Shown one piece after another: positions 14,404 to 37,764 of a stretch of 37,764 nt of DNA. The stretch lies in IMG/VR virus record IMGVR_UViG_3300045988_156100; one strand, given 5' to 3'. The notes under the pieces were generated by a model. The model was not told the DNA's origin, searched no databases, and worked only from the letters and a program-made list of their open reading frames with translations. A program made the position numbers and the translations under genes. This DNA is from a virus. Every line of letters starts with the position of its first letter. Position 1 is the first letter of the stretch.

Positions 14404-16050
14404 TTACCATGCGAAGGAGATCGCGCCGCCTGGCTCCCAGCCTTCGGCGTGCTCATCCGCCGCGGCCTCGTGGGCTAGAATGTCGGCCATGAGCACGTCG
14501 ATCTTCATGTGCTCAGCGGGTTTGCCGAGGATGAATTTGTCGCCGGGCTTGGCGACCTTCCGGGCGTGCAGTGCGCACAGCTTCGCGGTCTCATCCGGGG
14601 TGTGCGTGGTCAGGCCTTCGGCGAGATCCTCACGGAAACGCACCAGCGCCGCGAACATGCGTGTGATCGAGTTCGTCGGCCACTGCACCACCACGTAATC
14701 GCCGTAGAGGTTTTCCCAGTGGTCGATCTGCGTTTCCCAGTGCCTCGGGTCGCAGTAGAACCTCTGCACCGTGTAGCGGTCCATGAGCTCTGCGACAGCC
14801 GCGTCCACCTCGCCGCGAGGGATGCGTCCTTCCGGCCATTCCTCGGGGTTCCACACGGTAGGCCGCTGATCGGGGCCGTACGTGGGTGTGAAGCGCAGGC
14901 CGTCGACTGTTTCGGCGCGGATTGCCGTCCAGTCGCCCGACCGCGAACCGTCGAAGCCCAGCGCGATCTCACACCCCGGCTCGGGCTGGGTGTCGCGGGT
15001 CTGCCTGTCCCAGACCTTCTCAGTCAGATACGACCCCCTGCCCTGAACGAGGCGATTGCCAAAAAAGCGCTCGGCCTGCGTGGGGTCGGTTTCCATGAGC
15101 TCGTCGACCTCGGCGTCAATTGCCTTGGGGTCCACCCACGGCGACGACGCGTACACGAAGCGGTGAATCTTGGAGCGATCCGCCTTCTTCGTGTAATCCC
15201 AGTCGAGAGGCGGTTTTTCGTAGAACTTGAAGATGTCCCGCGCCCGGCTTTGGTAGGCCTGCTGCGCCGCCGAGTCCTCCATGGGGTCCCACGGGTTCGT
15301 GAGCTCGATGGTGCGGCCCTGCATACCCGCAACGGCGCGGCGGATCGTCTGCCATGTGTTCAGCACGCCCGACTGGGGCGTATACAGGCCAGACTCATCC
15401 GCAATCGCGCAGGTGAAGGGCTGGCCGAGCTTGGAACGTGCGGCGCTCGTGACGGGCACGATCTTGCCCTCGTTCGGCAAGCGCACGAAGCCCTCACGCA
15501 CGCGCACGAAGTCGCCGAGCGGACCGCTCTTAATCATGGCCTGCAACGGCTCGTAGACGTTCCTGGTCTGGTCCTCAGCGAAAGCCAGGAGGGCGATCAG
15601 GCTTTTGTCGCGCGGGCGGCCCATGGCTTCCCCAGGCTCGTACCAGTACTCCCAGCCGCATCCGCACCCGTGGTCCGAGCAGCGGTATACGTCGCCGTCG
15701 CGCGCCCAGCCCGCGAACATCGCCGGACCCACGCCTTCCGCGAGCGCGACCGCCGCCGCGAGCGGCGACTTACCCGACTTCTGTGGCCCTACCCATAGGC
15801 TGCGCCTGTAGGTGAAGGGTTCTACCAGACGGTGCGGGTCGGGCTTTGCGTTGGCCTTGATGCGGTAGTGGTTGGCGTTGCAGTACAACTGCCACCCGTT
15901 GAGCACGAGGGGTTGGTTGAAGTACACGCCGGAGGGGACGAGGCAGTGGGCCTCGATCCAGTCCGAGATCAGGAAGCCCAATGTGTGGTTGGGGTTGAAG
16001 TCCAAGCTGAGTGGGGGCGGCGCGTACTCGTCATGCGCCATCACTGCCAC
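14404..16050 (-). CDS. terL: Terminase large subunit
   Basis: 548 aa with Walker A-like GPQKSGKS and Walker B-like CAIADESG. It follows the small terminase. Confidence 0.9.
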   Translation of the reverse strand: MAVMAHDEYAPPPLSLDFNPNHTLGFLISDWIEAHCLVPSGVYFNQPLVLNGWQLYCNANHYRIKANAKPDPHRLVEPFTYRRSLWVGPQKSGKSPLAAAVALAEGVGPAMFAGWARDGDVYRCSDHGCGCGWEYWYEPGEAMGRPRDKSLIALLAFAEDQTRNVYEPLQAMIKSGPLGDFVRVREGFVRLPNEGKIVPVTSAARSKLGQPFTCAIADESGLYTPQSGVLNTWQTIRRAVAGMQGRTIELTNPWDPMEDSAAQQAYQSRARDIFKFYEKPPLDWDYTKKADRSKIHRFVYASSPWVDPKAIDAEVDELMETDPTQAERFFGNRLVQGRGSYLTEKVWDRQTRDTQPEPGCEIALGFDGSRSGDWTAIRAETVDGLRFTPTYGPDQRPTVWNPEEWPEGRIPRGEVDAAVAELMDRYTVQRFYCDPRHWETQIDHWENLYGDYVVVQWPTNSITRMFAALVRFREDLAEGLTTHTPDETAKLCALHARKVAKPGDKFILGKPAEHMKIDVLMADILAHEAAADEHAEGWEPGGAISFAW

Positions 16051-16748: not shown

Positions 16749-17096
16749 TCAGTCCGTTTCGGTTCGGTCGTATTTGTGCGCCGCTTTTCCGCCAGCGCTT
16801 CGGTTGCAAAATCTGTGTTCTGGTCCGCGAATGATCAAACGATCTTCGTCATCATGACCAAGATCAAACGGTTCGCCTGCCTTGATGGGCTTACCACACC
16901 GCCAGCACACGGCCTGGCCGGCCTCCACTAGGCGGGCTGCCTGCGCCCGGGCGGCCCGGTAGTGGCGGTCATACCCGCGCGCGGTTGGGTAGCCGCGTTG
17001 CTGTTCGCGCTCGCGGCTGTGTGTGGGGCAGTGGCGGGGGCCGGGGTGTGGGATGAGGGCGGGGCATCCCGGGTGTGGGCAGCGGCGGCGGGTCAT
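16749..17096 (-). CDS. HNH endonuclease
   Basis: Cys/His-rich sequence CPHPGCP...HCPTH...CWRCGKPI...DLGHDDEDR...H, in the position just before the terminase genes. Confidence 0.85.
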   Translation of the reverse strand: MTRRRCPHPGCPALIPHPGPRHCPTHSREREQQRGYPTARGYDRHYRAARAQAARLVEAGQAVCWRCGKPIKAGEPFDLGHDDEDRLIIRGPEHRFCNRSAGGKAAHKYDRTETD

Positions 17097-17134
17097 GGGT
17101 TATATCCGTGTGGTGTGTGTCATGTCCCCACGTA

Positions 17135-17215
17135 TTGACTTAGCATCGCGCGCGGGCTATAGTTAGTGGTGTCAGGAGGGAACAAGCCCCCTGCATCTCA
17201 ACGAAGGAGACCCCC
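17135..17215 (+). promoter_or_regulatory. Promoter/leader cassette copy 1
   Basis: -35 TTGACT at 17135-17140, a 17-nt spacer, and -10 TATAGT at 17158-17163. The leader has a bulged hairpin at 17173-17193 and the SD AAGGAGA. It is about 85% identical to the cassettes at 32645.. and 33790.. Confidence 0.75.
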
Positions 17216-17491
17216 ATGGAAACCATCTACACCCCCGAGGACCTGGCCGAGGTTATCGAGCTGACCGAGGAGCCCACCCGCTTCACCACCCTTGACGAGG
17301 TGCGGGGTATGGTCCGTGACGCTATCGGCCTGGGCGACGACGCTGATGTCGAGGATCTGATCGAGGAGTGCTTCGGCTGGTACCAGGCGCTTGACATGAA
17401 CACCGGCACGATCAGCCTGAACCGTCAGGGCTTCTACCAGACCGTGACCGCCGCTGACTTCTGGAAGGCGGTCGAGCGGCTCGGCCTGTGA
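17216..17491 (+). CDS. Small acidic protein P1 (91 aa, unknown function)
   Basis: The only plus-strand gene inside the late region. It has its own promoter/leader and terminator. My hand count gives about 20 D/E versus 6 K/R. Confidence 0.75.
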   Translation: METIYTPEDLAEVIELTEEPTRFTTLDEVRGMVRDAIGLGDDADVEDLIEECFGWYQALDMNTGTISLNRQGFYQTVTAADFWKAVERLGL

Positions 17492-17507
17492 CCCACGGGT
17501 GATACAC

Positions 17508-17541
17508 AAGACCCCCGACCTGTTACCGGGTCGGGGGTCTT
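17508..17541 (+). terminator. Stem-loop terminator after P1
   Basis: The arms aagacccccgacc and ggtcgggggtctt form a 13-bp perfect stem with an 8-nt loop. Confidence 0.7.
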
Positions 17542-17618
17542 GGTATCGATCAGGAGGCGGGGCCGTGGCACACTACACCCGCTTTAAGTGTGACAGTATC
17601 ACACTTAGGGGGTATCTG

Positions 17619-18951: not shown

Positions 18952-19416
18952 TTAAAACGGGGGGTCGGCTGGCATGGGCTGGTTAGCCCACGGGCTGCCG
19001 CCGCCGGGCTGACCCGTGACGTTGCCAGGAGCGGGCGCTGGCCCGCGCTGCGCCTGGTACTGGCGGCGCGCGGCGGTCGAGCCCAGGAAGCGCGGGTTGA
19101 GCACCTCGAGGGCTTCGTGGCGCTGCCCATCCCGGCCCGTGAACTCGACCTTTGCGATCACGCCACTGAGGCCAACCTGGTCGCCCTTTCGGCATGTCTC
19201 GGCGATCCACGAGTGACGTTCGCCCCACAGGGCGGCGCGCACCCACACGGGGGCCCCCGCGTCCTCCCACTCGCCCGTGGGCTTACCGTCCGGGCCTCGA
19301 CGCTGCCTGCGCGGCGTCGCGCAGATCCGCAGCTCGGTGACCTGCTGGCCGCCCTGGGTCCACCGCACTTCGGGGTCGGCGCCCAGGTTGCCGCTTATGG
19401 TTGCTTCGATTGCCAT
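18952..19416 (-). CDS. ssb: Single-stranded DNA-binding protein
   Basis: Start taken at MAIEATISGNLGADPEVRW..., preceded by aaaaggaga. It has an OB-fold-like N-terminus, a Gly/Pro/Gln-rich tail and a C-terminal ...ADPPF tip. Confidence 0.85.
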   Translation of the reverse strand: MAIEATISGNLGADPEVRWTQGGQQVTELRICATPRRQRRGPDGKPTGEWEDAGAPVWVRAALWGERHSWIAETCRKGDQVGLSGVIAKVEFTGRDGQRHEALEVLNPRFLGSTAARRQYQAQRGPAPAPGNVTGQPGGGSPWANQPMPADPPF

Positions 19417-19583
19417 GATTGATGTCTCCTTTTCGTTGATTTCACGCCGATTGTCGGGCGTGAGCTTATGATGATGTGCCGCGAGCGCGTTTATTGCCTG
19501 CCCGGTCGATTCGCTGTGCGGCGTTTTCCGGGCCTCCCAGCACCTCGGGTGGGTGTGGGTACCGACGGGGGGCTGTTCGCCTG

Positions 19584-20066
19584 TCAGCGGCCCGCGCTGG
19601 GGGCTTGCCGGGGGGTTGCTGCGTCGAGCATGGCCTTCCACTCGGCGGGCGGGGGCGCTGATGGCAGTTCGCGGGGTTCGCGGGGGGTGCGTTGGATTGC
19701 GTGCCAGGCGCGGGCGTCGGCCTGGGTGGCGTCGCATCCGGCTTTGATGGCGCGGATCTGGGCTCGTTGCCAGGCGATCCAGTCACCGGGGGTGTCTGCG
19801 AGCTCGTCGGGCGGCCCGGGCAGGCCCATGCGCTCAGCGCTTTCGAGCCTGGCCTTGCCGAGGGCGCGCCAGCGGCGGTTGATGTCGGCGGGCATGACCC
19901 AGTTGCGCTCGTCGCGGTAGTGCTCGGTGACGATGCGCAGGGCGTCCTGCAGGGGCAGGTCTTTGTCGAGGGCTTCGGACCAGGCGAGCGCGGCTGCCTG
20001 CGTTGCTTGGCGGTTGTCGTACGCGGCGGCCTTGGCGAGGACTTTTGCGGCTTCTTGGGGGGTCAT
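19584..20066 (-). CDS. Hypothetical protein (replication module)
   Basis: 160-aa ORF whose start overlaps the stop of the initiator gene. Confidence 0.6.
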   Translation of the reverse strand: MTPQEAAKVLAKAAAYDNRQATQAAALAWSEALDKDLPLQDALRIVTEHYRDERNWVMPADINRRWRALGKARLESAERMGLPGPPDELADTPGDWIAWQRAQIRAIKAGCDATQADARAWHAIQRTPREPRELPSAPPPAEWKAMLDAATPRQAPSAGR

Positions 20067-20995
20067 GCTACTGCGCCTCCTTCGATGGCGATCAGGCTGG
20101 GCTGGGTGGGGTCCTGGTGGTTGGGGTCGAGGCTGTCAGCGAGGGCGAGCCAGCCGCTGACGCGGTCGTCGGTGGTGGCACGCTGTACGGGGCCACGCTG
20201 TGGGCCGTGGGCTTGTTCCTGGCAGCGGCGCGCCCAGTTGCGCCACGTGGCCGCCCAGTCGGCGCGGACGGCTCGCTGCCCTGAGAGCGATTGCCAGTAG
20301 TCCCGAAAGCGATCAAGCTCAGCAGCGTTCGCCGCGGCGGGGGCGTTGACCTTGGTCCAGGCAATGAGGGCGTCGTCTGGCACCCAGCCGTCGGGCAAGC
20401 GCGTCCCACGTGACGCTCGGGTTCGCTTCGAGGGCTTCGAGGGCTTCGAGGGCTTCGAGGTTGCCGGGTCCGCGTCAGCGGACACGGTCTGAGACTCAGC
20501 GCTCGCGGTCGGCGCGTCAGCGTTTTCGTGAGGGGGCCTAAAAGGGGTGTCCTTCCCTGTTCCCTGTTCCCTGTTCCCTGTTCCCTGTTCCGGGAGTGAG
20601 GCCTCAGTGAGTGTGCAGTGAGGACTCACTGAGGCCTCAGTGAGTGTGCAGTTTTCGGCGTTATATTGCGGGAAACGCGGTTTTGACGGTCGGTTGATTT
20701 TCTGGTGTTTGTCCCAACTGTTCACCTGCAGGTATTTGCGCCCGTCGGGGCCCTTATATCGGGTGATTAGACCCTGCTGTGAGAGGCGCATGAGGCCTCC
20801 GTGAGTCCTCACTGAGGCCTCACTGAATGTGTCGAGAGGGTACAGGTCACACTGGATGAGTTGGGGCGCGTCGCGGCCCACGCCGTTGTCCTCAACGTAT
20901 GACCACAGGCCGATGAACAGGAGCCTGTCCTCGATGCTCAGGGCTGCGATGTCCTCGCTGCGCCAGAATTCAGGTTTGATGGTTCGGATGCGCAC
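20063..20995 (-). CDS. Replication initiator / replisome-organiser-like protein with an internal repeat array
   Basis: 310 aa. The N-terminal MRIRTIKPEFWRSEDIA...RLLFIGLWSY and the C-terminal FRDYWQSLSG...WRNWARR resemble phage replication-organiser proteins. The central part is encoded by DNA repeats. Confidence 0.6.
   Translation of the reverse strand: MRIRTIKPEFWRSEDIAALSIEDRLLFIGLWSYVEDNGVGRDAPQLIQCDLYPLDTFSEASVRTHGGLMRLSQQGLITRYKGPDGRKYLQVNSWDKHQKINRPSKPRFPQYNAENCTLTEASVSPHCTLTEASLPEQGTGNREQGTGKDTPFRPPHENADAPTASAESQTVSADADPATSKPSKPSKPSKRTRASRGTRLPDGWVPDDALIAWTKVNAPAAANAAELDRFRDYWQSLSGQRAVRADWAATWRNWARRCQEQAHGPQRGPVQRATTDDRVSGWLALADSLDPNHQDPTQPSLIAIEGGAVA
20426..20822. repeat. Origin-like repeat array inside the initiator gene
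   Basis: The array has five parts. cttcgaggg occurs 3.9 times at 20426-20460. ccctgtt occurs 5 times at 20555-20589. The 22-mer tgaggcctcagtgagtgtgcag occurs at 20597 and 20630. A 20-bp perfect palindrome lies at 20625-20644. TGAGGCCTCA boxes recur at 20791 and 20813, flanking a less G+C-rich spacer. Confidence 0.6.
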
Positions 20996-29479: not shown

Positions 29480-29743
29480 TTACGCGGCCTGTCGGGCTGC
29501 GCGGGTGGCGGCTGCCTTTCTGGCGGCCTGGCTTCTGCTGCTGCGTGCGGTGATCCTGCCTTCGGCGGGGGCTGCTGCGTGCCGGGCTTGGTAGGCCTGC
29601 AGGGCTTCGGCGGGGATGCGCCAGCCTGCGCGGCCTTTCTCGTTCCACGCGGCGATCTGGCCGTCGCGGATGCGGCGGCGGACGGCGGCGGGGGAGAGCC
29701 GGAGCATCTCGGCGGCCTCGGCGAGGGTGAGGATCTGGGTCAC
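29480..29743 (-). CDS. Excisionase-family/MerR-like HTH DNA-binding protein
   Basis: GTG start in a GTGA overlap. LTLAEAAEMLRLSPAAVRRRIRDGQI is a typical HTH_17 pattern. Confidence 0.65.
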   Translation of the reverse strand: MTQILTLAEAAEMLRLSPAAVRRRIRDGQIAAWNEKGRAGWRIPAEALQAYQARHAAAPAEGRITARSSRSQAARKAAATRAARQAA

Positions 29744-29967
29744 GCGGCCTCCTCGGTTCGGGTTTCGACGTCGGCCATAAAACGGCTCGGGGTCTCGTAC
29801 CCGAGGGCGGCGCTGATGGCGGCGATCTCGCCTAGCGTGAAGTCGCTCTCACCTGAGAGTTTGCGCGCAAGCGTTGTTCGCGAAAGTCCAACCTGCTTGG
29901 CGAACGCGCGGATTGAGACCCCGGCGCTGTTGATCCGCGCTTTCAGCTCAGTTTGAACTGTGTTCAA
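29740..29967 (-). CDS. Cro-like XRE-family HTH regulator
   Basis: TTG at 29967 lies 7 nt after aaggagg. The product carries ...SIRAFAKQVGLSRTTLARKLSGES... The gene is divergent from the repressor gene. Confidence 0.7.
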   Translation of the reverse strand: MNTVQTELKARINSAGVSIRAFAKQVGLSRTTLARKLSGESDFTLGEIAAISAALGYETPSRFMADVETRTEEAA

Positions 29968-29988
29968 TGGTGTTCCTCCTTTCCGGGG

Positions 29989-30104
29989 TGGCCCATTTGT
30001 GGGCCGCATGTGAGTAACCATAGTGGCCCAGAAGTGGGTCAGTCAAGTCGAAACGCGAAAATTGATGACGCAATGTCCCTACCAGGTGGCCCGTTTCTGG
30101 TCCA
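29989..30104. promoter_or_regulatory. Immunity switch: three operators plus divergent promoters
   Basis: Operators with consensus TGGCCCA-N4-TGGGCCA lie at 29989-30006, 30024-30041 and 30087-30104. The leftward promoter has TTGACT (30046..30041), an 18-nt spacer and TATGGT (30022..30017), with an operator in the spacer. The rightward -10 CATAAT (30103-30108) ends 7 nt before the repressor ATG. Confidence 0.65.
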
Positions 30105-30115
30105 TAATTGGGCGC

Positions 30116-30385
30116 ATGAGTGTCACAGCATTTGAGCCGCACGACTTCGAGCAGGCCGTCGCCGCCGCCCTACGGGCCGAAATGAGCCGTCAAGGCATAT
30201 CTCAGCGCACACTTTCAACTCGGTCGGGAGTTTCCCGGTCGCGGCTGATGCGAGTTCTTGCAGAGGAGGGCCAAACCGCGCCCATGACTGTCACGGTGCT
30301 AGAGGCCTTATGTCGTGCTCTCGGCGTATCCATGACACGGATACTCACTGACGCTGAAACCATGCTCGCAACCGGGCGGGCATAA
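30116..30385 (+). CDS. CI-like XRE-family repressor
   Basis: Start taken at MSVTAFEPHDF... The HTH is ISQRTLSTRSGVSRSRLMRVL. The gene is divergent from the early operon and is probably leaderless. Confidence 0.7.
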   Translation: MSVTAFEPHDFEQAVAAALRAEMSRQGISQRTLSTRSGVSRSRLMRVLAEEGQTAPMTVTVLEALCRALGVSMTRILTDAETMLATGRA

Positions 30386-30389
30386 AAAC

Positions 30390-30422
30390 AGACCCCACCA
30401 GGACGTCACACTGGTGGGGTCT
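30390..30422. terminator. Stem-loop terminator (U-tract only on the minus strand)
   Basis: The arms agaccccaccag and ctggtggggtct form a 12-bp stem. An aaaaac run precedes it on the plus strand, which puts GTTTTT after the hairpin on the minus strand. Confidence 0.65.
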
Positions 30423-30510
30423 CGCGCATTTAGAACGCCCGTGCGCGCGGGCAAACCCAGGGGGCCGACCCTGGTGTCAATATGTGTGCGCTCAGGTGAG
30501 CATATCACGG

Positions 30511-30528
30511 CGGCCCACTAGTGGGCCA
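30511..30528. promoter_or_regulatory. Distal fourth operator-like palindrome
   Basis: cGGCCCActagTGGGCCa matches the operator consensus. Its core ggcccactagtgggcc is a perfect 16-bp palindrome. Confidence 0.5.
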
Positions 30529-30543
30529 GATGAGAGACGCGAG

Positions 30544-30588
30544 CCGCCGCCCCTGCCATGACATTCCCGATCATGGCAGGGGCGGCGG
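30544..30588. other. Perfect 18-bp stem / 9-nt loop hairpin
   Basis: The arms are ccgccgcccctgccatga and tcatggcaggggcggcgg. Confidence 0.8.
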
Positions 30589-31297
30589 GGTTCGCGCATG
30601 TGAGGCCGGCGCGGGCGGCCCGGGTCTCTCGCGTCGGGGCGCGGTTTACCCAAGAGAGAACCGCCCAGCTACCCGAAGATGCCGAGCGATCGGTTACCTC
30701 AATTATACGCCTGGCCGCCCACATCTGCGTCCAGGCGTGGCCACTGATATGAGAAGTCCCCACACGGAACCTTGCGGAAGTGTGGGGGCGCTGCCACTAG
30801 CTTAGCTCGCGGCGGGCGCATCTGTAGACATGAGAGCCACCCCCGCGCCGTGAGAGGCCCAGTCAACGGCATAGGGGGCGGGATCTGCGCATTGTAGCCC
30901 GCGCATGGGCCGGGGCTGCGCGGGCGAACCACGCTACTCCTAACGGCTAGGTCGCACCCCGCGGCGGGCCGGGGCCTGCAGTGCCTAACCTCGATATGGC
31001 CCCGGTCATTTGTGCGTGAAAACAGAGGCCCGACCGGGGGTCTGTCGCCCCTATCCTACCTCGCAGCGGGTGCATCTGCGTCCCCACGCGCGGCTCTGCG
31101 CGAGGCAAGGTGTAAAGACAACCAGCCGCGAGCGCAGCGCCGACCGACCGCGCTTTTTGGTGCGTGTCACGTGACACGCGCGCAACGTCACGCAAGGGTG
31201 TTTTAGGCCCATTCAAGGCTAGTCAGAAAAGCCGACTTTTCGGCGGAAAATCAACACCTTTGCCCGCCCGCGCGCCGCAAACGCCGAAACACCCTGC

Positions 31298-31324
31298 GGG
31301 GGGTTCGATTCCCCCCATCTCCAC
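31298..31324 (+). other. attP core: 3' end of a tmRNA or tRNA (T-arm plus acceptor 3' strand), not a full gene
   Basis: GGGGG-TTCGATT-CCCCC is followed by CATCTCC, discriminator A, then C. No complementary 5' acceptor strand exists upstream. The site lies 137 nt upstream of int. Confidence 0.65.
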
Positions 31325-31460
31325 AACAAAAACCGCATGATTCTGCGGTAAACTGAGGGTGTGAAAACAGCGTGACACGCCTGCGTGACACGCACGCTAA
31401 TTTAGCGGAGTACAATCAAGATCAAGCAAAGCACCTCAACATCAAGCAAGGCGGCGCAAA

Positions 31461-32624
31461 ATGGCTTCTGTCAAGGCAGTGAAGCACCGTGACGGCACCG
31501 TCGTGTATCGCGTCCGCTACCGCGCGGGCGGGCGCAACCCCGTCGTAGAGACGTTCTACGACGCCGCGACCGCGCAGCGCTTCGCCGACCTCGTCGACCG
31601 CGTCGGCGGGGCCGCCGCACGTGAGATGCGCAGCCTCGACGACCTGGCCGCCGCCGATACGCCGACCGTCGCCGCGGCGTGCGAGCATCACCTCGAGGCC
31701 CTCGCCGCGTCGGCAACGCCCGGCACGATCAGCAGATACAGGCAGATCGTGCGGGACCGGATCGAGCCGCGCCTCGGCCTCATCCCCGTCGACATGCTCA
31801 CCCGGCACACAGTCGCCAAGTGGGTCGCCGAACTACGCCGCACGCCCGTCACTCGAGGGGCCACCGCCGGCCAGCCGCCGTCGGCAAAGACTATCCGCAA
31901 CGCCCAAGCATTCCTATCCGCTGCCCTGCAACGCCTCGTCGACGAGGGCGTGATCCCAAGGAACGTTGCCAAGGGCGTGCCCCTACCCAAAGATGCGACC
32001 GTGCGCGAGATGCGCTTCCTAACCCCCGACGAGTTCGCGCGCCTCCACGCGTGCATACCCGCCGATTACCAGCCCTTCGTCGCGGCCATGTACGGGCTCG
32101 GCCTGCGCTTCGGCGAGGCAACCGCCCTCACGGTCGCCGATGTCGACCTCGACGTCGTACAACCAGTCGTGCGCGTCAACAAGGCGTGGAAGATGGGCGA
32201 GAACGGCGTGCCCTACATCGGGGCACCAAAAACCAAGCGGGCGCGGCGTACCGTCACCATCCCCGCGCCCCTCATCCCTGAGCTGGCAGGTGCGCTCGCG
32301 GGCAAGTCGGCGGACGATCTTGTATTCACGGCCAGGCGGGGAGGTCCGATCACCTCGGGACCGTTTCACGCCCACATCTGGCAGCCTGCGTGCGATGCGG
32401 CGGGCCTATCGCCGCGCCCGCGCGTGCATGATCTGAGGCACTCGCACGCTTCGGCGCTGATCGCTGCGGGCGTCCCCCTGCCCGTCGTTCAACGGCGCAT
32501 GGGGCACGAATCAATCCAAACCACTGTCGATGTGTACGGGCACCTCGCGCCTGATGCGTACGCGGGCGCTGCTGAGGCCATGAGCGTGGCCATGGGGGGT
32601 GTGTCCCCTCAACTTAGCATGTGA
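31461..32624 (+). CDS. int: Tyrosine integrase
   Basis: 387 aa. The C-terminal HDLRHSHASALI...GHESIQTTVDVYGHL is the tyrosine-recombinase catalytic signature. It has an SAM-like N-terminal domain. Confidence 0.9.
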   Translation: MASVKAVKHRDGTVVYRVRYRAGGRNPVVETFYDAATAQRFADLVDRVGGAAAREMRSLDDLAAADTPTVAAACEHHLEALAASATPGTISRYRQIVRDRIEPRLGLIPVDMLTRHTVAKWVAELRRTPVTRGATAGQPPSAKTIRNAQAFLSAALQRLVDEGVIPRNVAKGVPLPKDATVREMRFLTPDEFARLHACIPADYQPFVAAMYGLGLRFGEATALTVADVDLDVVQPVVRVNKAWKMGENGVPYIGAPKTKRARRTVTIPAPLIPELAGALAGKSADDLVFTARRGGPITSGPFHAHIWQPACDAAGLSPRPRVHDLRHSHASALIAAGVPLPVVQRRMGHESIQTTVDVYGHLAPDAYAGAAEAMSVAMGGVSPQLSM

Positions 32625-32644
32625 CGCGCATCTCGCTTGCTTGG

Positions 32645-32726
32645 TTTGCATGATAGCCCGTGCGCGGGCTATAGTTAGGTCATCGGGAGGGAACAAGCCC
32701 CCCGAACCTCAACAAGGAGAAAGACA
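32645..32726 (+). promoter_or_regulatory. Promoter/leader cassette copy 2
   Basis: TTGCAT at 32646-32651, an 18-nt spacer and TATAGT at 32670-32675. The leader hairpin is at 32684-32704 and the SD is AAGGAGA. The spacer carries the inverted repeat ATAGCCCG-tgcg-CGGGCTAT. Confidence 0.75.
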
Positions 32727-33068
32727 ATGACCACCACGACCTGGACCAAGGCAGAGCGCTTCGACGGCGAAGGCGCCCTCATTGCCGCCGACCTCGACAA
32801 CGGTGCCCGCGCCGTCGTCTACGGCGAATACCAGGATGGAATCAAGATCAGCATGTTGATCTTCAACGATGCCCTGCCGGGCGGTAGCGCCTCGACCGAA
32901 CGCACACAGGATTGGCCGCTCGTTGAGCGCTACATTCCCCGCGCCGAGTGGCCTGCCGAAATCTGGGGTGGCTACCATGGCCCCGCCGAACGCACCCCCG
33001 ACCCCGAGGTTGCCGCCGCCGTCGCCCAGTACGTCGCCGAGACGAACGCTTGGCTTGTCGAGGACTGA
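32727..33068 (+). CDS. Small acidic protein P2 (113 aa, unknown function)
   Basis: First gene behind cassette 2. My hand count gives about 19 D/E versus 8 K/R. Confidence 0.75.
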   Translation: MTTTTWTKAERFDGEGALIAADLDNGARAVVYGEYQDGIKISMLIFNDALPGGSASTERTQDWPLVERYIPRAEWPAEIWGGYHGPAERTPDPEVAAAVAQYVAETNAWLVED

Positions 33069-33130
33069 TCAACAAACCCAAGGCCCCCGCGCTCACCACA
33101 GGACGCGGGGGCCAACCCATAGGAGGAGAT

Positions 33131-33541
33131 TTGACCGGACCACTCACCCCAGCCGGCCTGCGTTGCCGGCGCAAGGCACTAGGGCTCACCCGCGCTGAGC
33201 TTGGCTACCTCATCGATGCACCCGAGAGTGCGATCCGCTCGTGGGAGATAGGGAAGGGGGCACCGCGTGACCCGATCAGTGTCCACATGCTGATCGGCAA
33301 CCTTGAGGACGCCGCCCTCGACTGTGTTGACGAACTGACGGCCCCCGCTGACGATGAGAACGAGGACGTGCGCGTCATCCCCACCGCACTTATCACCTAC
33401 GTCGACCAGGCCTCCTACGAACATGGGTGCGAGTGGGCCGACCGGCTCCCCTTGTCCACATATCAGGCATGCGTGGGCCGCGCCTTCGCCCTCCTGGCAG
33501 ACCAGGATATCCCTGTCGAAATCATCACACGGACTAACTAA
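33131..33541 (+). CDS. XRE-family HTH protein with a C-terminal domain of unknown function
   Basis: TTG at 33131 follows aggagga. The HTH is LRCRRKALGLTRAELGYLIDAPESAIRSWEIGK. Confidence 0.65.
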   Translation: MTGPLTPAGLRCRRKALGLTRAELGYLIDAPESAIRSWEIGKGAPRDPISVHMLIGNLEDAALDCVDELTAPADDENEDVRVIPTALITYVDQASYEHGCEWADRLPLSTYQACVGRAFALLADQDIPVEIITRTN

Positions 33542-33552
33542 GGAGTGTACTC

Positions 33553-33768
33553 ATGACCCGCGAGTACCTTGGCGCCGCCGACTTCGCGGCCCGCGCAGGC
33601 CTTGCCCCTGCGACGATCAGGTCGTACATGCGGAAGGGCCTGACCCCGCCCGCTGACGTGCAGATCAGCACCCCGAATGGGCCCCTGCGCGGATGGTCTA
33701 CTGAGACAATCGACGCCTGGCTCGCATCAAGGCCAGGTCAGGGCGCGCGAACCGACCTGCGCAAGTAG
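33553..33768 (+). CDS. Excisionase-like (HTH_17/MerR-type) DNA-binding protein
   Basis: 71 aa with LGAADFAARAGLAPATIRSYMRKG...GWSTETIDAWL, preceded by the SD aaggag. It lies in the integrase-proximal region. Confidence 0.6.
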   Translation: MTREYLGAADFAARAGLAPATIRSYMRKGLTPPADVQISTPNGPLRGWSTETIDAWLASRPGQGARTDLRK

Positions 33769-33789
33769 TGCGCATCACATTACCCTCAC

Positions 33790-33869
33790 TTGCACTATGC
33801 ATCGCGCATGATGTATAGTTAAGTCATCGGGAGGGGAAAGCCCCCCGAAACTCAACGAAGGAGAACACC
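33790..33869 (+). promoter_or_regulatory. Promoter/leader cassette copy 3
   Basis: TTGCAC at 33790-33795, an 18-nt spacer and TATAGT at 33814-33819. The leader hairpin is at 33828-33847 and the SD is AAGGAGA. Confidence 0.75.
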
Positions 33870-34262
33870 ATGGACATCTACGCCGCCACCCAAGCGTTCA
33901 ACGCAGCCGCCAACAAGGCATGGACCACCTGCGACATCATCGATATCCCCGGATGCCCCGGGTGGACGTTCAACGGCCCCGCGCGGCCCACCGTAGGCTT
34001 CTTCGTCGCCATTAGCTACGACGGCCGCGAAATTGCCCGCGCCGACGGCGACGAAGCCGATCCGATGTCGATTCACTTCTACCCGACTCCGCGCGAGGTC
34101 GTCGAGCTTGACGATTTCAAGTGGATCGTCAGGATGATTCGTCAGGGCTTCCTTCTCAGCCTCGACTCCGAGTTCAACCACTGGCTCGCGAACTGCGAGC
34201 GCTTGAGCTATCACTGGGACTTCGATCCCGGGGTCGGAGTGACGGCCCCCGCCGAAGTCTGA
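33870..34262 (+). CDS. Small acidic protein P3 (130 aa, unknown function)
   Basis: It lies behind cassette 3 and is followed by a terminator. My hand count gives about 19 D/E versus 9 K/R. Confidence 0.75.
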   Translation: MDIYAATQAFNAAANKAWTTCDIIDIPGCPGWTFNGPARPTVGFFVAISYDGREIARADGDEADPMSIHFYPTPREVVELDDFKWIVRMIRQGFLLSLDSEFNHWLANCERLSYHWDFDPGVGVTAPAEV

Positions 34263-34271
34263 CAATAAGAG

Positions 34272-34312
34272 AAGGCCCCCACCACCCATGCGAATTGGGC
34301 GGTGGGGGCCTT
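34272..34312. terminator. Bidirectional stem-loop terminator between convergent genes
   Basis: The arms aaggcccccacc and ggtgggggcctt pair, with an inner CCCA/TGGG extension. T-rich flanks are present on both strands. Confidence 0.7.
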
Positions 34313-34323
34313 TCGGTGGCCTG

Positions 34324-35175
34324 CTAGGGGTGGATGTCGGAGGGCCGCGAGCACATGAGGCCGCGCGCTCCCTTAGAGAAGGCCGTCGACGCCTGTCCGC
34401 TGTTCGTGACGATGTGGGCAATGGTGGGTTTCCCGGTCGACGTCAGCATCGTCCATGCTGACGTCGAGGCGTTCCATTCGAGGCCGAGGACGTCCCACTC
34501 GTCAAATCGGGCGTCCGCGAGCTCTGTCTCGTAGAACATGCACATGGTCTTGTAGCCGCGTGCGCGAGCGCGGCGCGCGCCGCCGCCCTTGATAAAGCTC
34601 TTCCAGATCACCCGCTCCTGCGGTCGACCGTTGAAAGCTGCATCGAGGGCCTCATACAAGTCAAGCTCAGACTGCAGGTCACCTTCGGACGCGTCGGCTT
34701 TCGAGGACGTCGTTTTGTGGTCGACTGCGAGGATGACGTCCTTCGGGATGTTGTCGAGGACCTCGTCGAGGAGCATGATCGGCCCAGACGCCTGCTGCAG
34801 TGTTTTGAGTGTCTCCCAGGGCGTGTTCCAGATCGCGTAGTCAGATCCGGGTACAGTGCGGCTGGTTTTCCAGTCGTGCATGAGCACGTACTCACCGCTC
34901 CCGCACCGGCGGACGGAGAGCTCTAGCGCCTTGAAACCAGCGCGCAGCGACGCGTCCAGGCCGCGGCGCGTGAACTCCGGGTACTCGTCTCCACCTAGTC
35001 GGTGGCTGATGTAAAACGGGCGGCCCTGGAAGAAGTTTGCGACAAGGTCCGTGCGCGTCTCGCCGGTTTCGCCGGGCGCGTACAGGCGCTGATCACCACC
35101 ATCGCGGCGACGCCGATACAGACGTCCGACAACGTCGCCGCCCTCGCGGTGACGTACGTGCAGTTGGTTGCTCAC
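34324..35175 (-). CDS. Glycerophosphodiester phosphodiesterase (GDPD)-like protein
   Basis: GTG at 35175 forms a GTGA overlap. ISHRLGGDEYPEFTRRG...KALELSVRRCGSGEYVLMHD resembles the GDPD pattern HRG..PENT...E.D....vv.HD. Confidence 0.6.
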   Translation of the reverse strand: MSNQLHVRHREGGDVVGRLYRRRRDGGDQRLYAPGETGETRTDLVANFFQGRPFYISHRLGGDEYPEFTRRGLDASLRAGFKALELSVRRCGSGEYVLMHDWKTSRTVPGSDYAIWNTPWETLKTLQQASGPIMLLDEVLDNIPKDVILAVDHKTTSSKADASEGDLQSELDLYEALDAAFNGRPQERVIWKSFIKGGGARRARARGYKTMCMFYETELADARFDEWDVLGLEWNASTSAWTMLTSTGKPTIAHIVTNSGQASTAFSKGARGLMCSRPSDIHP

Positions 35176-36233
35176 TTGGGGATCACCACCTGCACGCCGC
35201 ACCCGTTTGTCGCCTGGACGTTGGGGTAGGTGAAGATCGCCTGGTCAGAGCCAGTGGCAGTGCGCTTGGCGACGACGATGGTCTCCCACGCCTCGCCTTC
35301 CTGCAGGGCAGAAACGATCTTCTCCCAGCCTGCAGATACGCTGATCTGCTCGTCTGTCTCGTTCGCGGATGTGCGCTCACACGCCACCGCGAGCGCCAGG
35401 CCCTCGGTTTCGACGACAGGCGCAGTCACCGTCACAGTCTCGGTAGGTTCTTCGTTGCGTTTCTTGACAGCGCCGACGACCGGCTGGCCGCCGCCGCGCA
35501 CGACAATGGCTGCCCACGATCCGGTCACGGGCTTGGAGGTAATGACCTCCATGGTCTCAGCCCATCCGCCGGTCATGATGACGAACCGCATTGTGCCCTG
35601 ATAGTAGGGCTGTAGGAGAGTGTCCCACCCGGTGGGGGCCGTGAAGCCTGCGTCGCCGCCCTTGGTGTTGAGGATGAGGATGACGCGGTCCCCTGCCTGG
35701 CCGCCCGCCGCAGTCACGGTGATGCGGTCGCCTGCCGCGCGGCCAGCGGCATGCGCGACCACTGTGGGAGCCGCCACCGGCGCGGGGCCAGGCGAGGGCA
35801 CATCCGCGGCGAGGAGATAGATTTCCCCGTCCGCGAGCTCAGCGGCCTCCTGCTTCGAGCGCACGACCTTGATGGATGCGAACGCGACGGGATTCCCGTC
35901 GCCGTCGACGATCACGGTGCCGCCCGGCTGAGGGGTCGGCGTGGGCTGGGATCCGGGGGAGAGGAGCTCGCCGATCTTCATGACCTGCCCGTCGGTTAGC
36001 TGCACCTCGCGTTCGGCGAGGATCGCCGACGTCGCCGTCGTCACCGTCAGGACATAACGCCCTGGGGTGAGCGACGTATCGATGTTTCCGTCCTGCGCGT
36101 CGGTGAGGAGACCGCCCACGACGATATCACCCGCTTGCGTGCGCGAGGGGTTGGGCACGGGGGTAGCGTTGAGCGCGACCGCGACGGGCTTTCCGGTCGG
36201 GCCGGTAACGCGCCCGCGAATTGAGACAGCCAT
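35172..36233 (-). CDS. CarboxypepD_reg-like beta-sandwich protein with Pro-rich linkers and a C-terminal domain of unknown function
   Basis: 353 aa. The N-terminal IRGRVTGPTGKPVAVA...LTPGRYVLTV fits the carboxypeptidase-regulatory-like fold pattern. Confidence 0.5.
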   Translation of the reverse strand: MAVSIRGRVTGPTGKPVAVALNATPVPNPSRTQAGDIVVGGLLTDAQDGNIDTSLTPGRYVLTVTTATSAILAEREVQLTDGQVMKIGELLSPGSQPTPTPQPGGTVIVDGDGNPVAFASIKVVRSKQEAAELADGEIYLLAADVPSPGPAPVAAPTVVAHAAGRAAGDRITVTAAGGQAGDRVILILNTKGGDAGFTAPTGWDTLLQPYYQGTMRFVIMTGGWAETMEVITSKPVTGSWAAIVVRGGGQPVVGAVKKRNEEPTETVTVTAPVVETEGLALAVACERTSANETDEQISVSAGWEKIVSALQEGEAWETIVVAKRTATGSDQAIFTYPNVQATNGCGVQVVIPK

Positions 36234-36764: not shown

Positions 36765-37132
36765 TCGATACGCTCCTCACCGCCGCCCATCAGATCGTCG
36801 CGATCCACGCCGCCGGGCGTGAACGCGCCCACCCAATCAAGGAGAGACCAGCCGTTCACCTTGACACTGGAAAGCACCTGATACACGCTCCACGCAACGC
36901 CGAGGAACACCGACAACTGCGCCGTGAGCAGACGCCAAGTCGCCGGGTACACCCCAGCGACCCACACGCCCGCAGTCACCACCAGCGCGACGACGACAAG
37001 CAAGCCAACGCGGCGCTCGCGGGTCCACCACGGGCGATCCAGCGCCGCCTGGATGAGCGGCCAGATGATGCCGCAGAGGACCGTCATGACGAAGGGGTCC
37101 TGGTGGAGACTGAGCAGCATGTCGTTCATCAT
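36761..37132 (-). CDS. Holin (three TM segments)
   Basis: Start taken at MMNDMLLSL... (ATGA overlap with the endolysin stop). It has three hydrophobic helices and a charged C-terminus. Confidence 0.7.
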   Translation of the reverse strand: MMNDMLLSLHQDPFVMTVLCGIIWPLIQAALDRPWWTRERRVGLLVVVALVVTAGVWVAGVYPATWRLLTAQLSVFLGVAWSVYQVLSSVKVNGWSLLDWVGAFTPGGVDRDDLMGGGEERIE

Positions 37133-37764
37133 GCACCTGCCTTGATGGCGGCGGCGATATCGTCGGCGAGGAGCTTGCGGCGGGCGGCGGCGTCGGCGGC
37201 GATGGAAGCGATGTCGCCGTCGTCGAGGCTGACGGTGTAAGAGTCGTCGAGGGCGTATGCCTTCACCATGTCCGTCCACGTTTTGGCGGACTTCATGGAG
37301 GTGACTGCCAGGGGGGTGACTGCGTAGATGGTGCCGGTTTGCCGGCTTCGGATGAACTGCATCTCTTCTTCCTTGTGTTCGGGTTCGGTTGACGTGTCGG
37401 TGCCGTTGACGAGGGCCATGTAGTAGGCCCAGGGGAAATTGACCCCCGGGTCGGTGTGATCAGACCGCTTGTATACGCGGCTGACCTGGTCGTGGCCGAC
37501 GAAACCGGACTCGCCGGCTGCCAGTTCGGCGTCCGTCAGGTGACGGAGTGGGATGCCGAGGCTGTCGGCGATTTCGCGGGTCGCTGTAGCGGATAGCTGG
37601 AGCATGGACAGGGACGCAGCGTCGCCCCATTCCTCGGGGGATTGCCGGGCGTACCCGGCATGCTCGACCTGATAGCCATCTGAATTGCAGCCGGGGGCTG
37701 CGAACGCGACGGCGGATGCGGGTAGGCAGTACACGACTGAGTCCTGGTCGACGCACATGTGCGC
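37129..37764 (-). CDS. Endolysin, 3' portion (amidase plus C-terminal domain); the 5' end is at 56..202 after circularisation
   Basis: The sequence ...GYQVEHAGYA...GHDQVSRVYKRSDHTDPG... resembles the Amidase_2 type. The frame continues across the junction, giving 260 aa in total. Confidence 0.8.
   Translation of the reverse strand, partial: AHMCVDQDSVVYCLPASAVAFAAPGCNSDGYQVEHAGYARQSPEEWGDAASLSMLQLSATATREIADSLGIPLRHLTDAELAAGESGFVGHDQVSRVYKRSDHTDPGVNFPWAYYMALVNGTDTSTEPEHKEEEMQFIRSRQTGTIYAVTPLAVTSMKSAKTWTDMVKAYALDDSYTVSLDDGDIASIAADAAARRKLLADDIAAAIKAGA

Follow-up and report, generated by a model that had tools for sequence, protein, structure and literature searches.

A candidate acr-aca2-like locus with three copies of a conserved regulatory cassette in a temperate Actinomyces phage

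The viral genome IMGVR_UViG_3300045988_156100 (37,764 nucleotides; "the window" hereafter, i.e., the whole stretch of DNA analyzed) carries, next to its integrase gene, a + strand operon in which a compact regulatory cassette precedes the gene of a small acidic protein, P2. Genes for an XRE-type helix-turn-helix (HTH) protein and for a 71-aa MerR-like DNA-binding protein follow. Two further copies of the cassette precede the genes of two other small acidic proteins, P1 and P3. The order of these elements is conserved in ~60 viral contigs, the genes placed behind the cassette are exchanged among phages, both the DNA and the RNA elements of the cassette are conserved, and the XRE protein is distantly akin to Aca2, a regulator of anti-CRISPR (Acr) operons. 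An initial annotation, made from the sequence of the window alone, had read the operon as an acr-aca locus. Its architecture and the kinship of its regulator hold on wider comparison, but the proteins encoded behind the cassettes (cargo) resemble no known Acr. We favor an acr-aca2-like anti-defense locus with a portable regulatory cassette that serves three units, and put the probability of this reading at about one half.

RESULTS

One cassette precedes three small genes

The cassette was defined from an alignment of 85 distinct copies, from which a covariance model was built. It spans ~90 bp and consists of a promoter, an inverted repeat, a leader hairpin (UCGGG-A-GGG / CCCCCCGA), a Shine-Dalgarno sequence, and a start codon at a fixed distance. 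Near-invariant among the 85 copies are the -35 region (CTTGCA/G), the -10 hexamer (TATAGT), and the stretch CATCGGGAGGG-loop-CCCCCCGAACCTCAA-GAAGGAG. The leader folds as an 8-bp stem with a bulged A; 99.6% of the cells of this helix are paired, the loop occurs in nine variants of 4-6 nt, and three cassettes, drawn from two kinds of slot, carry A-U in place of one G-C pair. With a transcription start 6-9 nt downstream of the -10 hexamer, the hairpin would begin within a few bases of the mRNA 5' end. The model recovers exactly three full copies in the window, the number initially claimed, and no other match below E = 0.08. A 22-nt core pattern retrieves copies 2 and 3, with 0 chance matches expected from shuffled sequences.

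Copy 2 (32625-32726, +; covariance-model match 32639-32729, E = 4.7e-28) lies upstream of P2 and has a predicted promoter composed of a -35 hexamer TTGCAT (32646-32651), an 18-nt spacer, and the -10 hexamer TATAGT (32670-32675). Its inverted repeat, ATAGCCCG-TGCG-CGGGCTAT, is present where the initial annotation saw it and overlaps the -10 hexamer, except that its left end is 32653 rather than 32654 (32653-32672). The leader contains the bulged hairpin (32683-32705), located inside a minimum-free-energy structure of -15.7 kcal/mol (z = -3.3), and the Shine-Dalgarno sequence AAGGAG (32714-32719). Copy 3 (33769-33869, +; match 33783-33872, E = 3.7e-28) repeats this layout upstream of P3, with TTGCAC (33790-33795), TATAGT (33814-33819), the inverted repeat ACTATGCATC/GATGTATAGT (33794-33819; fold -12 kcal/mol, z = -3.0), which takes in the -10 hexamer, and a leader hairpin at 33827-33848. 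Copy 1 (17127-17215, +; match 17127-17218, E = 2.5e-15), in front of P1, is more divergent; it combines TTGACT (17135-17140), a 17-nt spacer in which the repeat is degenerate, TATAGT (17158-17163), and a leader hairpin (17167-17197) that is a compensatory variant, CAGGAGGG...CCCCCTG. This variant, its degenerate repeat ending in TAGC/GCTA, is kept in at least seven relatives.

A simple consensus promoter scan did not list the cassette promoters, whose hexamers score ~8/12 where the cut-off against TTGACA/TATAAT was 9/12; the promoter call therefore rests on conservation. A divergent - strand promoter at the inverted repeat was considered and dropped, its 22-nt spacing being too long. Rfam gave no match in the whole window at gathering thresholds and only chance-level matches in a permissive scan of 32560-33900.

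The inverted repeat, or palindrome, is conserved as a structure as well. Over the 85 cassettes, 94.6% of its cells are paired and double changes occur at four of the eight pairs. The covariation score of the whole structure (0.181) exceeds that of shuffled alignments (0.103; none of 500 reaches the observed value) and that obtained with slid partners (0.02-0.05). The palindrome comes in two flavors, ATAGCCCG/CGGGCTAT and AT(A/G)C(A/G)TCG/CGATGTAT. Within a given genome, the former usually lies behind the integrase gene and the latter behind the MerR-like gene.

The gene order is invariant and the cargo is exchanged

Protein- and pattern-anchored searches of viral contigs yielded ~80 loci on ~60 contigs, all with the order integrase, cassette, cargo, GC-rich hairpin, XRE, MerR-like gene. 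The integrase is one of two interchangeable types; relatives may carry a different, 464-aa tyrosine integrase in this slot with the downstream module unchanged. Many relatives, not all, have a second cassette with its own cargo and terminator, and the region ends with a converging phosphodiesterase gene. In many relatives (e.g., L022, L048, and L064), an extra + strand gene follows the second cargo hairpin; its product starts MRQDVDG... or MKQ.VDG..., and it has its own Shine-Dalgarno sequence (CAGGAGAC). This gene is absent from the window and indicates that the downstream unit can exceed one gene.

The same arrangement extends to two distant phages, L083 and L084, whose XRE proteins are 44% identical to that of the window and which keep the order P2-like gene, hairpin, XRE, MerR-like gene. 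Their P2-like gene specifies 110 aa and shares the motif DWP.VE..IPR.EWP. In a search with the window-derived covariance model, their cassettes reach E = 2e-5, 0.014, and 0.06. A repeat again lies over the -10 hexamer, and the shape of the leader is kept (lower stem, purine bulge, GGG/CCC upper stem, and A-rich loop), with lower-stem sequences changed to GUCGA..UCGAC or UCGG..CCGA. Positions 2040-2719 of L084 hold two tandem cargo cassettes before XRE, each with a repeat-bearing promoter and a leader hairpin; an extra 9-bp inverted repeat (CTATTTATG...CATAAATAG) stands ahead of the second promoter.

A survey of 94 distinct cassettes sorted their cargo, of 34-139 aa, into six unrelated families, four of which are strongly acidic (pI 4.1-5.0). 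Besides families 1, 2, and 3, which include P2, P1, and P3, respectively, these are family 0 (~137 aa, net charge down to -27), family 4 (basic, 114 aa), and family 5 (121 aa). Families 0, 1, 4, and 5 occur upstream of XRE, families 0, 2, and 3 downstream, and family 2 also in a third slot, between the HNH endonuclease gene and the end of the early operon. No cargo family matched Pfam, PHROGs, PADLOC, or NCBIfam. The cargo is thus small, mostly acidic, variable among phages, and next to an aca-type gene, a profile shared with Acr proteins. A chimeric gene in L012 (3591-3938; identical in L028) joins the first seven codons of the P3 family (MDMHAAT) to a P2-family remainder, in a phage that also bears a normal P3-family gene behind its second cassette. 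This chimera is direct evidence of recombination through the cassette into the first codons. An integron-like system was rejected: the integrases are of the ordinary phage tyrosine type, and each cargo gene has its own promoter.

P2 (32727-33068, +), a 113-aa member of family 1 and a candidate anti-defense effector, contains 19 D+E against 8 K+R residues (pI 4.29). Its net charge of -11 was correctly noted in the initial annotation, as were the P2, XRE, and 71-aa reading frames and the TTG start of XRE. The homologues of P2 fall into 34 clusters, all unnamed. Its AlphaFold2 (AF2) model is confident (mean predicted local distance difference test [pLDDT] 85.8, predicted template modeling score 0.82) and shows a five-stranded sheet with two helices. 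The model matched no fold in PDB (best E = 1.3), and neither did the sequence match any PDB sequence; in BFVD, only two uncharacterized proteins of uncultured siphoviruses were retrieved. P2 thus has a confidently modeled fold that appears to be absent from PDB. Homology to a structural or metabolic family, named at the outset as an outcome that would speak against an acr-aca locus, did not emerge in Pfam, PHROG, PADLOC, PDB, or BFVD.

P3 (33870-34262, +; 130 aa, net charge -10) belongs to a family that recurs in the downstream slot of relatives. Its unit is closed by a terminator hairpin with a 17-bp stem (34272-34312), called terminator-like on the - strand, which faces a converging gene for a GDPD-domain protein (glycerophosphodiester phosphodiesterase; 34324-35202, -; Pfam GDPD 7e-9, phrog_17803 1e-94). 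The latter is 55-93% identical in relatives and may be a teichoic-acid-degrading tail or lysis accessory. P1 (17216-17491, +; 91 aa, net charge -14) is inserted between the HNH endonuclease gene that heads the packaging operon (phrog_1808; 16749-17096, -) and the end of the early operon (phrog_645), also on the - strand. A strong terminator hairpin follows (17501-17547); the 110 nt from the P1 stop codon fold at -58 kcal/mol. Other phages carry members of the P1 family in their downstream slot, at ~40% identity. P1, P2, and P3 all have a negative grand average of hydropathy (-0.11 to -0.36).

The XRE protein is a distant relative of Aca2

The XRE gene (33131-33541, +) encodes 136 aa with an N-terminal HTH and a C-terminal domain and is the candidate cassette repressor. 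Its TTG start lies 3 nt past AGGAGGA. The N-terminus MTEPLTPAGLRCRR and AGGAGGA are kept in 51 distinct homologues, several of which have ATG or GTG at the start codon, and this constancy supports the TTG start. XRE homologues form at least 238 clusters, against the 34 of P2; the HTH gene thus stays constant while the cargo changes, and it is by this logic that acr genes are found through aca.

Pfam recognizes HTH_31/HTH_3 only weakly in the window protein (E ~0.03). A profile of the family matches the HTH of the P22 C2 and 434 repressors at 2e-3 when built from a close alignment and at 1e-7 to 4e-9 when remote members are used, which indicates an N-terminal domain of the Cro/C1 type. A HMMER search of 1.8 billion representatives recovered ~20 full-length relatives (125-150 aa, 25-45% identity). 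The remote-family profile A3 matched, in PDB, SO3848 (2ox6; 1.5e-5, residues 8-121 against 5-117) and Aca2 (7ezy; 1.2e-4, 10-130 against 1-111), followed by 8w35, 7vjo, and 7b5j. Profile searches for Aca families, proposed in the initial annotation, gave a near miss for a remote member: P0230 scored 23.5 bits against Pfam Aca2_YdiL (PF08965), whose threshold is 23.8, over model positions 1-108 of 118. P0229 matched the same family at E = 0.019, and P0166 and P0171 matched DUF4447, all across both domains. The AF2 model of the window protein has a mean pLDDT of 65.5, with a good HTH and a poor C-terminal domain. In a Foldseek search with this model, the only full-length matches were SO3848 (2ox6), Aca2 (7ezy, 7vjo, 7b5j, and 7vjq), and YdiL (1s4k), with template modeling (TM) scores of 0.57-0.69, and the order of the secondary structure elements in the poorly modeled C-terminal domain would fit the Aca2 fold. 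YdiL and SO3848 are reported to be the only two-domain structural neighbors of Aca2 (Usher et al., PMC8434428). We accordingly place the XRE protein near the Aca2/YdiL/SO3848 group, as a distant relative that lies below Pfam's membership criterion.

PADLOC returned only weak HTH matches, to RmrA for XRE and to mad1 for the 71-aa protein. INPHARED, which holds cultured phages, contained no relative of the window by DNA and none of P2 or the XRE proteins; remote members of the XRE family matched there only HTH stretches of mycobacteriophage Bipper and of Lactobacillus phages. One remote member, P0181, had no relative among the viral contigs. Two others, P0174 (326 aa) and P0204 (246 aa), have extra N- or C-terminal regions that share the motif …GDGxYTLxGP… / …DGTLLQGDGGTDDA…; these fusions suggest extensions of the kind found in sensor-type regulators.

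A hairpin precedes XRE and a MerR-like gene follows it

Between P2 and XRE lies a GC-rich hairpin without a U tract (33082-33113, +), with the 10-bp stem GGCCCCCGCG/CGCGGGGGCC, a candidate attenuator or mRNA 3' stabilizer. Relatives have an equivalent hairpin behind every cargo gene; those of the upstream slot lack a T run and are followed by the XRE start within ~25 nt. The space between cargo and XRE is too small for an XRE promoter.

The 71-aa protein (33553-33768, +; pI 10.4) follows XRE in every locus, including the distant L083 and L084, and could act as a second regulator or co-regulator. It matches MerR at 4.5e-4, HTH_17 at 0.079, and phrog_597, annotated "DNA binding protein," at 6.6e-20. 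The initial description as an HTH_17/excisionase-like protein is thus right as to a small DNA-binding HTH, of MerR-like type, but is weakened as to excisionase: TIGR01764 does not match it. A protein encoded in the early operon after the Cro-like gene (29480-29743, -) passes both profiles (HTH_17 5e-13; TIGR01764 "excise" 31.7 bits against a cut-off of 28.8) and is, judged by them, the likelier Xis.

Genome setting

An exact 55-nt direct repeat at its ends (1-55 / 37710-37764) shows the window to be a complete phage genome of ~37.7 kb, assembled as a circle. Its relatives in genome collections carry the labels Actinomyces or Actinomycetaceae, and we take it as a temperate Actinomyces phage. 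A tRNA search of the window found none. Nearly all genes are on the - strand, among them those for the endolysin (37129-37758), the large terminase (14404-16050), and the single-stranded DNA-binding protein and replication initiator (18952-20995). The + strand holds only the CI-like repressor (30023-30385), which is divergent from the Cro-like gene (CI/Cro pair, 29740-30385), the integrase, the genes of the cassette locus, and P1. The tyrosine integrase (31461-32624, +; Pfam Phage_integrase 1.6e-22, phrog_1 8.9e-70) is the upstream neighbor of cassette 2, with its stop codon at 32622-32624.

The ~1.07 kb that separate the CI-like gene from the integrase (30386-31460) contain no convincing open reading frame, tRNA, or Rfam match, and a gap of similar length is present in the relatives L011, L012, and L014. 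It probably contains attP plus something else, e.g., small genes or RNA. Terminator-like and promoter-like sites on the - strand occur inside this gap, at 31332-31365. A cluster of direct and inverted 11-nt repeats (GTGAGGCCTCA / GTGAGTCCTCA) at 20585-20831, including 36-nt arms 151 nt apart, sits in the 5' part of the replication-initiator gene (20063-20995, -), and its units resemble origin iterons.

DISCUSSION

Under the acr-aca2-like reading, host RNA polymerase would read the cassettes, whose promoters are of host type, right after DNA entry, and the small exchangeable genes would be expressed. The cargo proteins, P1, P2, and P3 included, would be inhibitors of host immunity. Read-through of the tail-less hairpin behind the first cargo gene would supply the XRE protein at a low level. 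As a dimeric HTH regulator of the Aca2/YdiL type, XRE would bind the promoter repeat and possibly, like Aca2, the leader hairpin in the RNA, and would shut all three cassettes once the effector suffices, and in the lysogen. The 71-aa MerR-like protein would be its conserved partner.

According to Feussner et al. 2026 (PMC13551039), Aca-controlled operons have a DNA repeat over the promoter, a transcription start site 10-15 nt downstream, an RNA motif that begins at this site, and a start codon whose position is conserved. The three cassettes, with their predicted transcription starts, fit this layout. Control of all three by one regulator, as the initial annotation envisaged, would agree with reports on Aca1 and Aca2 (PMC13551039). 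Our comparator is the acrIF8-aca2 operon of Pectobacterium phage ZF40, along with other Aca2 operons (PMC6765145; PMC8434428; PMC13551039). As in acrIF8-aca2, the effector gene or genes come first in the unit and the HTH regulator gene last, and the window's regulator has an N-terminal Cro/C1-type HTH with a C-terminal domain modeled, at low confidence, in an Aca2-like topology. An inverted repeat across the promoter, a 5' untranslated region that opens with a structured RNA, a conserved distance to the start codon, and copies of the regulatory region before neighboring operons without aca are likewise features of Aca2 operons. In contrast to Aca2, the XRE protein of the window falls under the Pfam Aca2_YdiL threshold, its link to the family running through remote relatives and a low-confidence model, and one main bulged leader hairpin stands here where two are described for Aca2. 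The locus further differs from acrIF8-aca2 in its actinobacterial host, the strong hairpin between effector and regulator, the MerR-like gene that is always next, and the absence of known Acr cargo. An "actino-motif" has been named for Aca2 operons (PMC13551039, credited to Birkholz et al. 2024), with which the present leader may or may not be identical.

Several observations weigh against an acr-aca2-like locus. None of the cargo proteins resembles a known Acr or anti-defense protein. The window XRE has no match to Pfam Aca2_YdiL (PF08965) at E <= 0.1, its C-terminal domain is modeled at pLDDT 43-63, a profile of that domain alone matches nothing in PDB, and the protein is acidic overall (net charge -10). 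The very stable hairpin between cargo and XRE could terminate transcription. All three units run in the direction of the CI-like and integrase genes and against every lytic gene, as lysogeny-expressed morons do. The palindrome is equivocal too: its two types usually coexist within one genome, its inner bases differ between cassettes, the repeat is degenerate in the P1 slot, and repeat type does not cleanly match recognition-helix variant. Its non-Watson-Crick positions are G·U 92 times on the + strand and 17 times on the - strand, a bias that is unexpected for a protein site on duplex DNA and that an RNA hairpin would show. This points to an RNA hairpin, e.g., one that serves the upstream gene as a terminator, either alongside a protein site or in its place. 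Since the palindrome begins ~25-30 nt past the stop codons of the integrase and MerR-like genes, and since the P1 slot has no co-directional gene upstream, it may also terminate the preceding transcript. The distant phages argue against a pure terminator role: L084 retains the repeat directly behind a separate terminator hairpin, and L083 has the outer half-sites and the spacing of the window's second flavor, ATACA-N10-TGTAT, with different inner bases. The operator function first proposed for the repeat is made uncertain by the variable inner bases, the degeneracy in copy 1, and the G·U bias.

The main rival to an acr-aca2-like locus explains the cassettes as lysogeny-expressed morons, each with a constitutive promoter, an mRNA-stabilizing 5' stem-loop, a gene, and a terminator. 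The palindrome would then be the terminator of the upstream gene, the cargo would serve the lysogen (in defense, exclusion, or host fitness), and XRE and MerR would be unrelated regulators placed by chance between two slots. Strand, the strong hairpin that closes each cargo gene, and the position, + strand G·U tolerance, and P1-slot degeneracy of the palindrome all suit this explanation, and so does the leader, since hairpins lying only a few nucleotides from a 5' end are classical mRNA stabilizers. P1 and P3 are indeed flanked by promoter-like hexamers and terminal hairpins at module junctions, and like morons the units are self-contained, run opposite the lytic genes, sit at module junctions and the integrase end, and vary in content. 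Morons are classically defined as independent acquisitions. The window departs from them in that one conserved promoter, repeat, and leader recurs in all units and one unit feeds a conserved regulator pair, which together suggest common control. Dedrick and colleagues reportedly found, in 2017, that Cluster N mycobacteriophages express variable genes during lysogeny, next to their integrase and repressor, and that these genes provide prophage-mediated defense. Cluster N phages too are temperate phages of actinobacteria with variable small genes by the integrase/immunity region on the repressor strand; their genes are said to be heterogeneous defense systems with their own signals, unlike the small acidic cargo, shared cassette, and Aca2-like gene found here. 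Several further features fit morons poorly. The cargo proteins are small, soluble, and acidic, without the enzymatic or membrane features typical of exclusion or defense proteins; the HTH gene has no space for a promoter of its own and is always fed by a cassette; the palindrome is kept behind a separate terminator in L084; and distant phages retain the outer half-sites with their 10-nt spacing. The Aca2-like kinship of XRE would moreover be a coincidence. We regard this explanation as rather unlikely.

P2, XRE, and the MerR-like protein could instead form a single three-gene lysogeny module, concerned with integration/excision directionality, a secondary immunity switch, or toxin-antitoxin-like or abortive-infection functions, with P2 as a co-factor. 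The trio, including a P2 homologue, occurs in the same order in the distant L083 and L084 and always adjoins the integrase, whatever the type or orientation of the latter. The 71-aa protein matches phrog_66, "excisionase and transcriptional regulator," at 7e-7, and XRE-family members weakly match antitoxin-type HTH (Xre-like-HTH and MqsA, and HigA in the PDB search). However, within the clade of the window the position of P2 is taken by three unrelated families (0, 4, and 5) while XRE-MerR stays, so this pair does not depend on P2. In addition, the early operon holds the better excisionase candidate (29480-29743, -), a separate CI/Cro pair is present at 29740-30385, and Pfam and PADLOC reveal no toxin-like domain in any cargo. 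A three-gene module is, in our judgment, very unlikely.

The acr-aca2-like reading has a bolder form. The ~90-bp unit would be a portable "terminator-operator-promoter-leader" module that brings exchangeable anti-defense genes into three fixed slots by recombination through the common cassette. An unrecognized actinobacterial branch of Aca2, with its MerR-like partner, would control it at both the DNA and RNA levels, the palindrome being a DNA operator and, on read-through, an RNA hairpin, and the six cargo families would amount to novel inhibitors of Actinomyces immunity that adopt new folds. We offer this form tentatively and regard it as rather unlikely.

Acr-aca loci are the main route to new inhibitors of bacterial immunity. 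To our knowledge, little acr-aca work has dealt with Actinomyces and related bacteria, abundant inhabitants of the human mouth and gut. If the cassettes mark morons, they would flag prophage genes that are expressed in oral Actinomyces lysogens, a useful but more ordinary outcome. If the locus is of the acr-aca2 type, six unannotated families would become anti-defense candidates, among them P2, confidently modeled and without a solved counterpart, and the conserved DNA/RNA signature, captured in the covariance model, could pull further cargo from metagenomes. Regulation of the Aca2 type through both DNA and RNA would then reach a divergent subfamily in actinobacteria, one that has a constant MerR-like partner.

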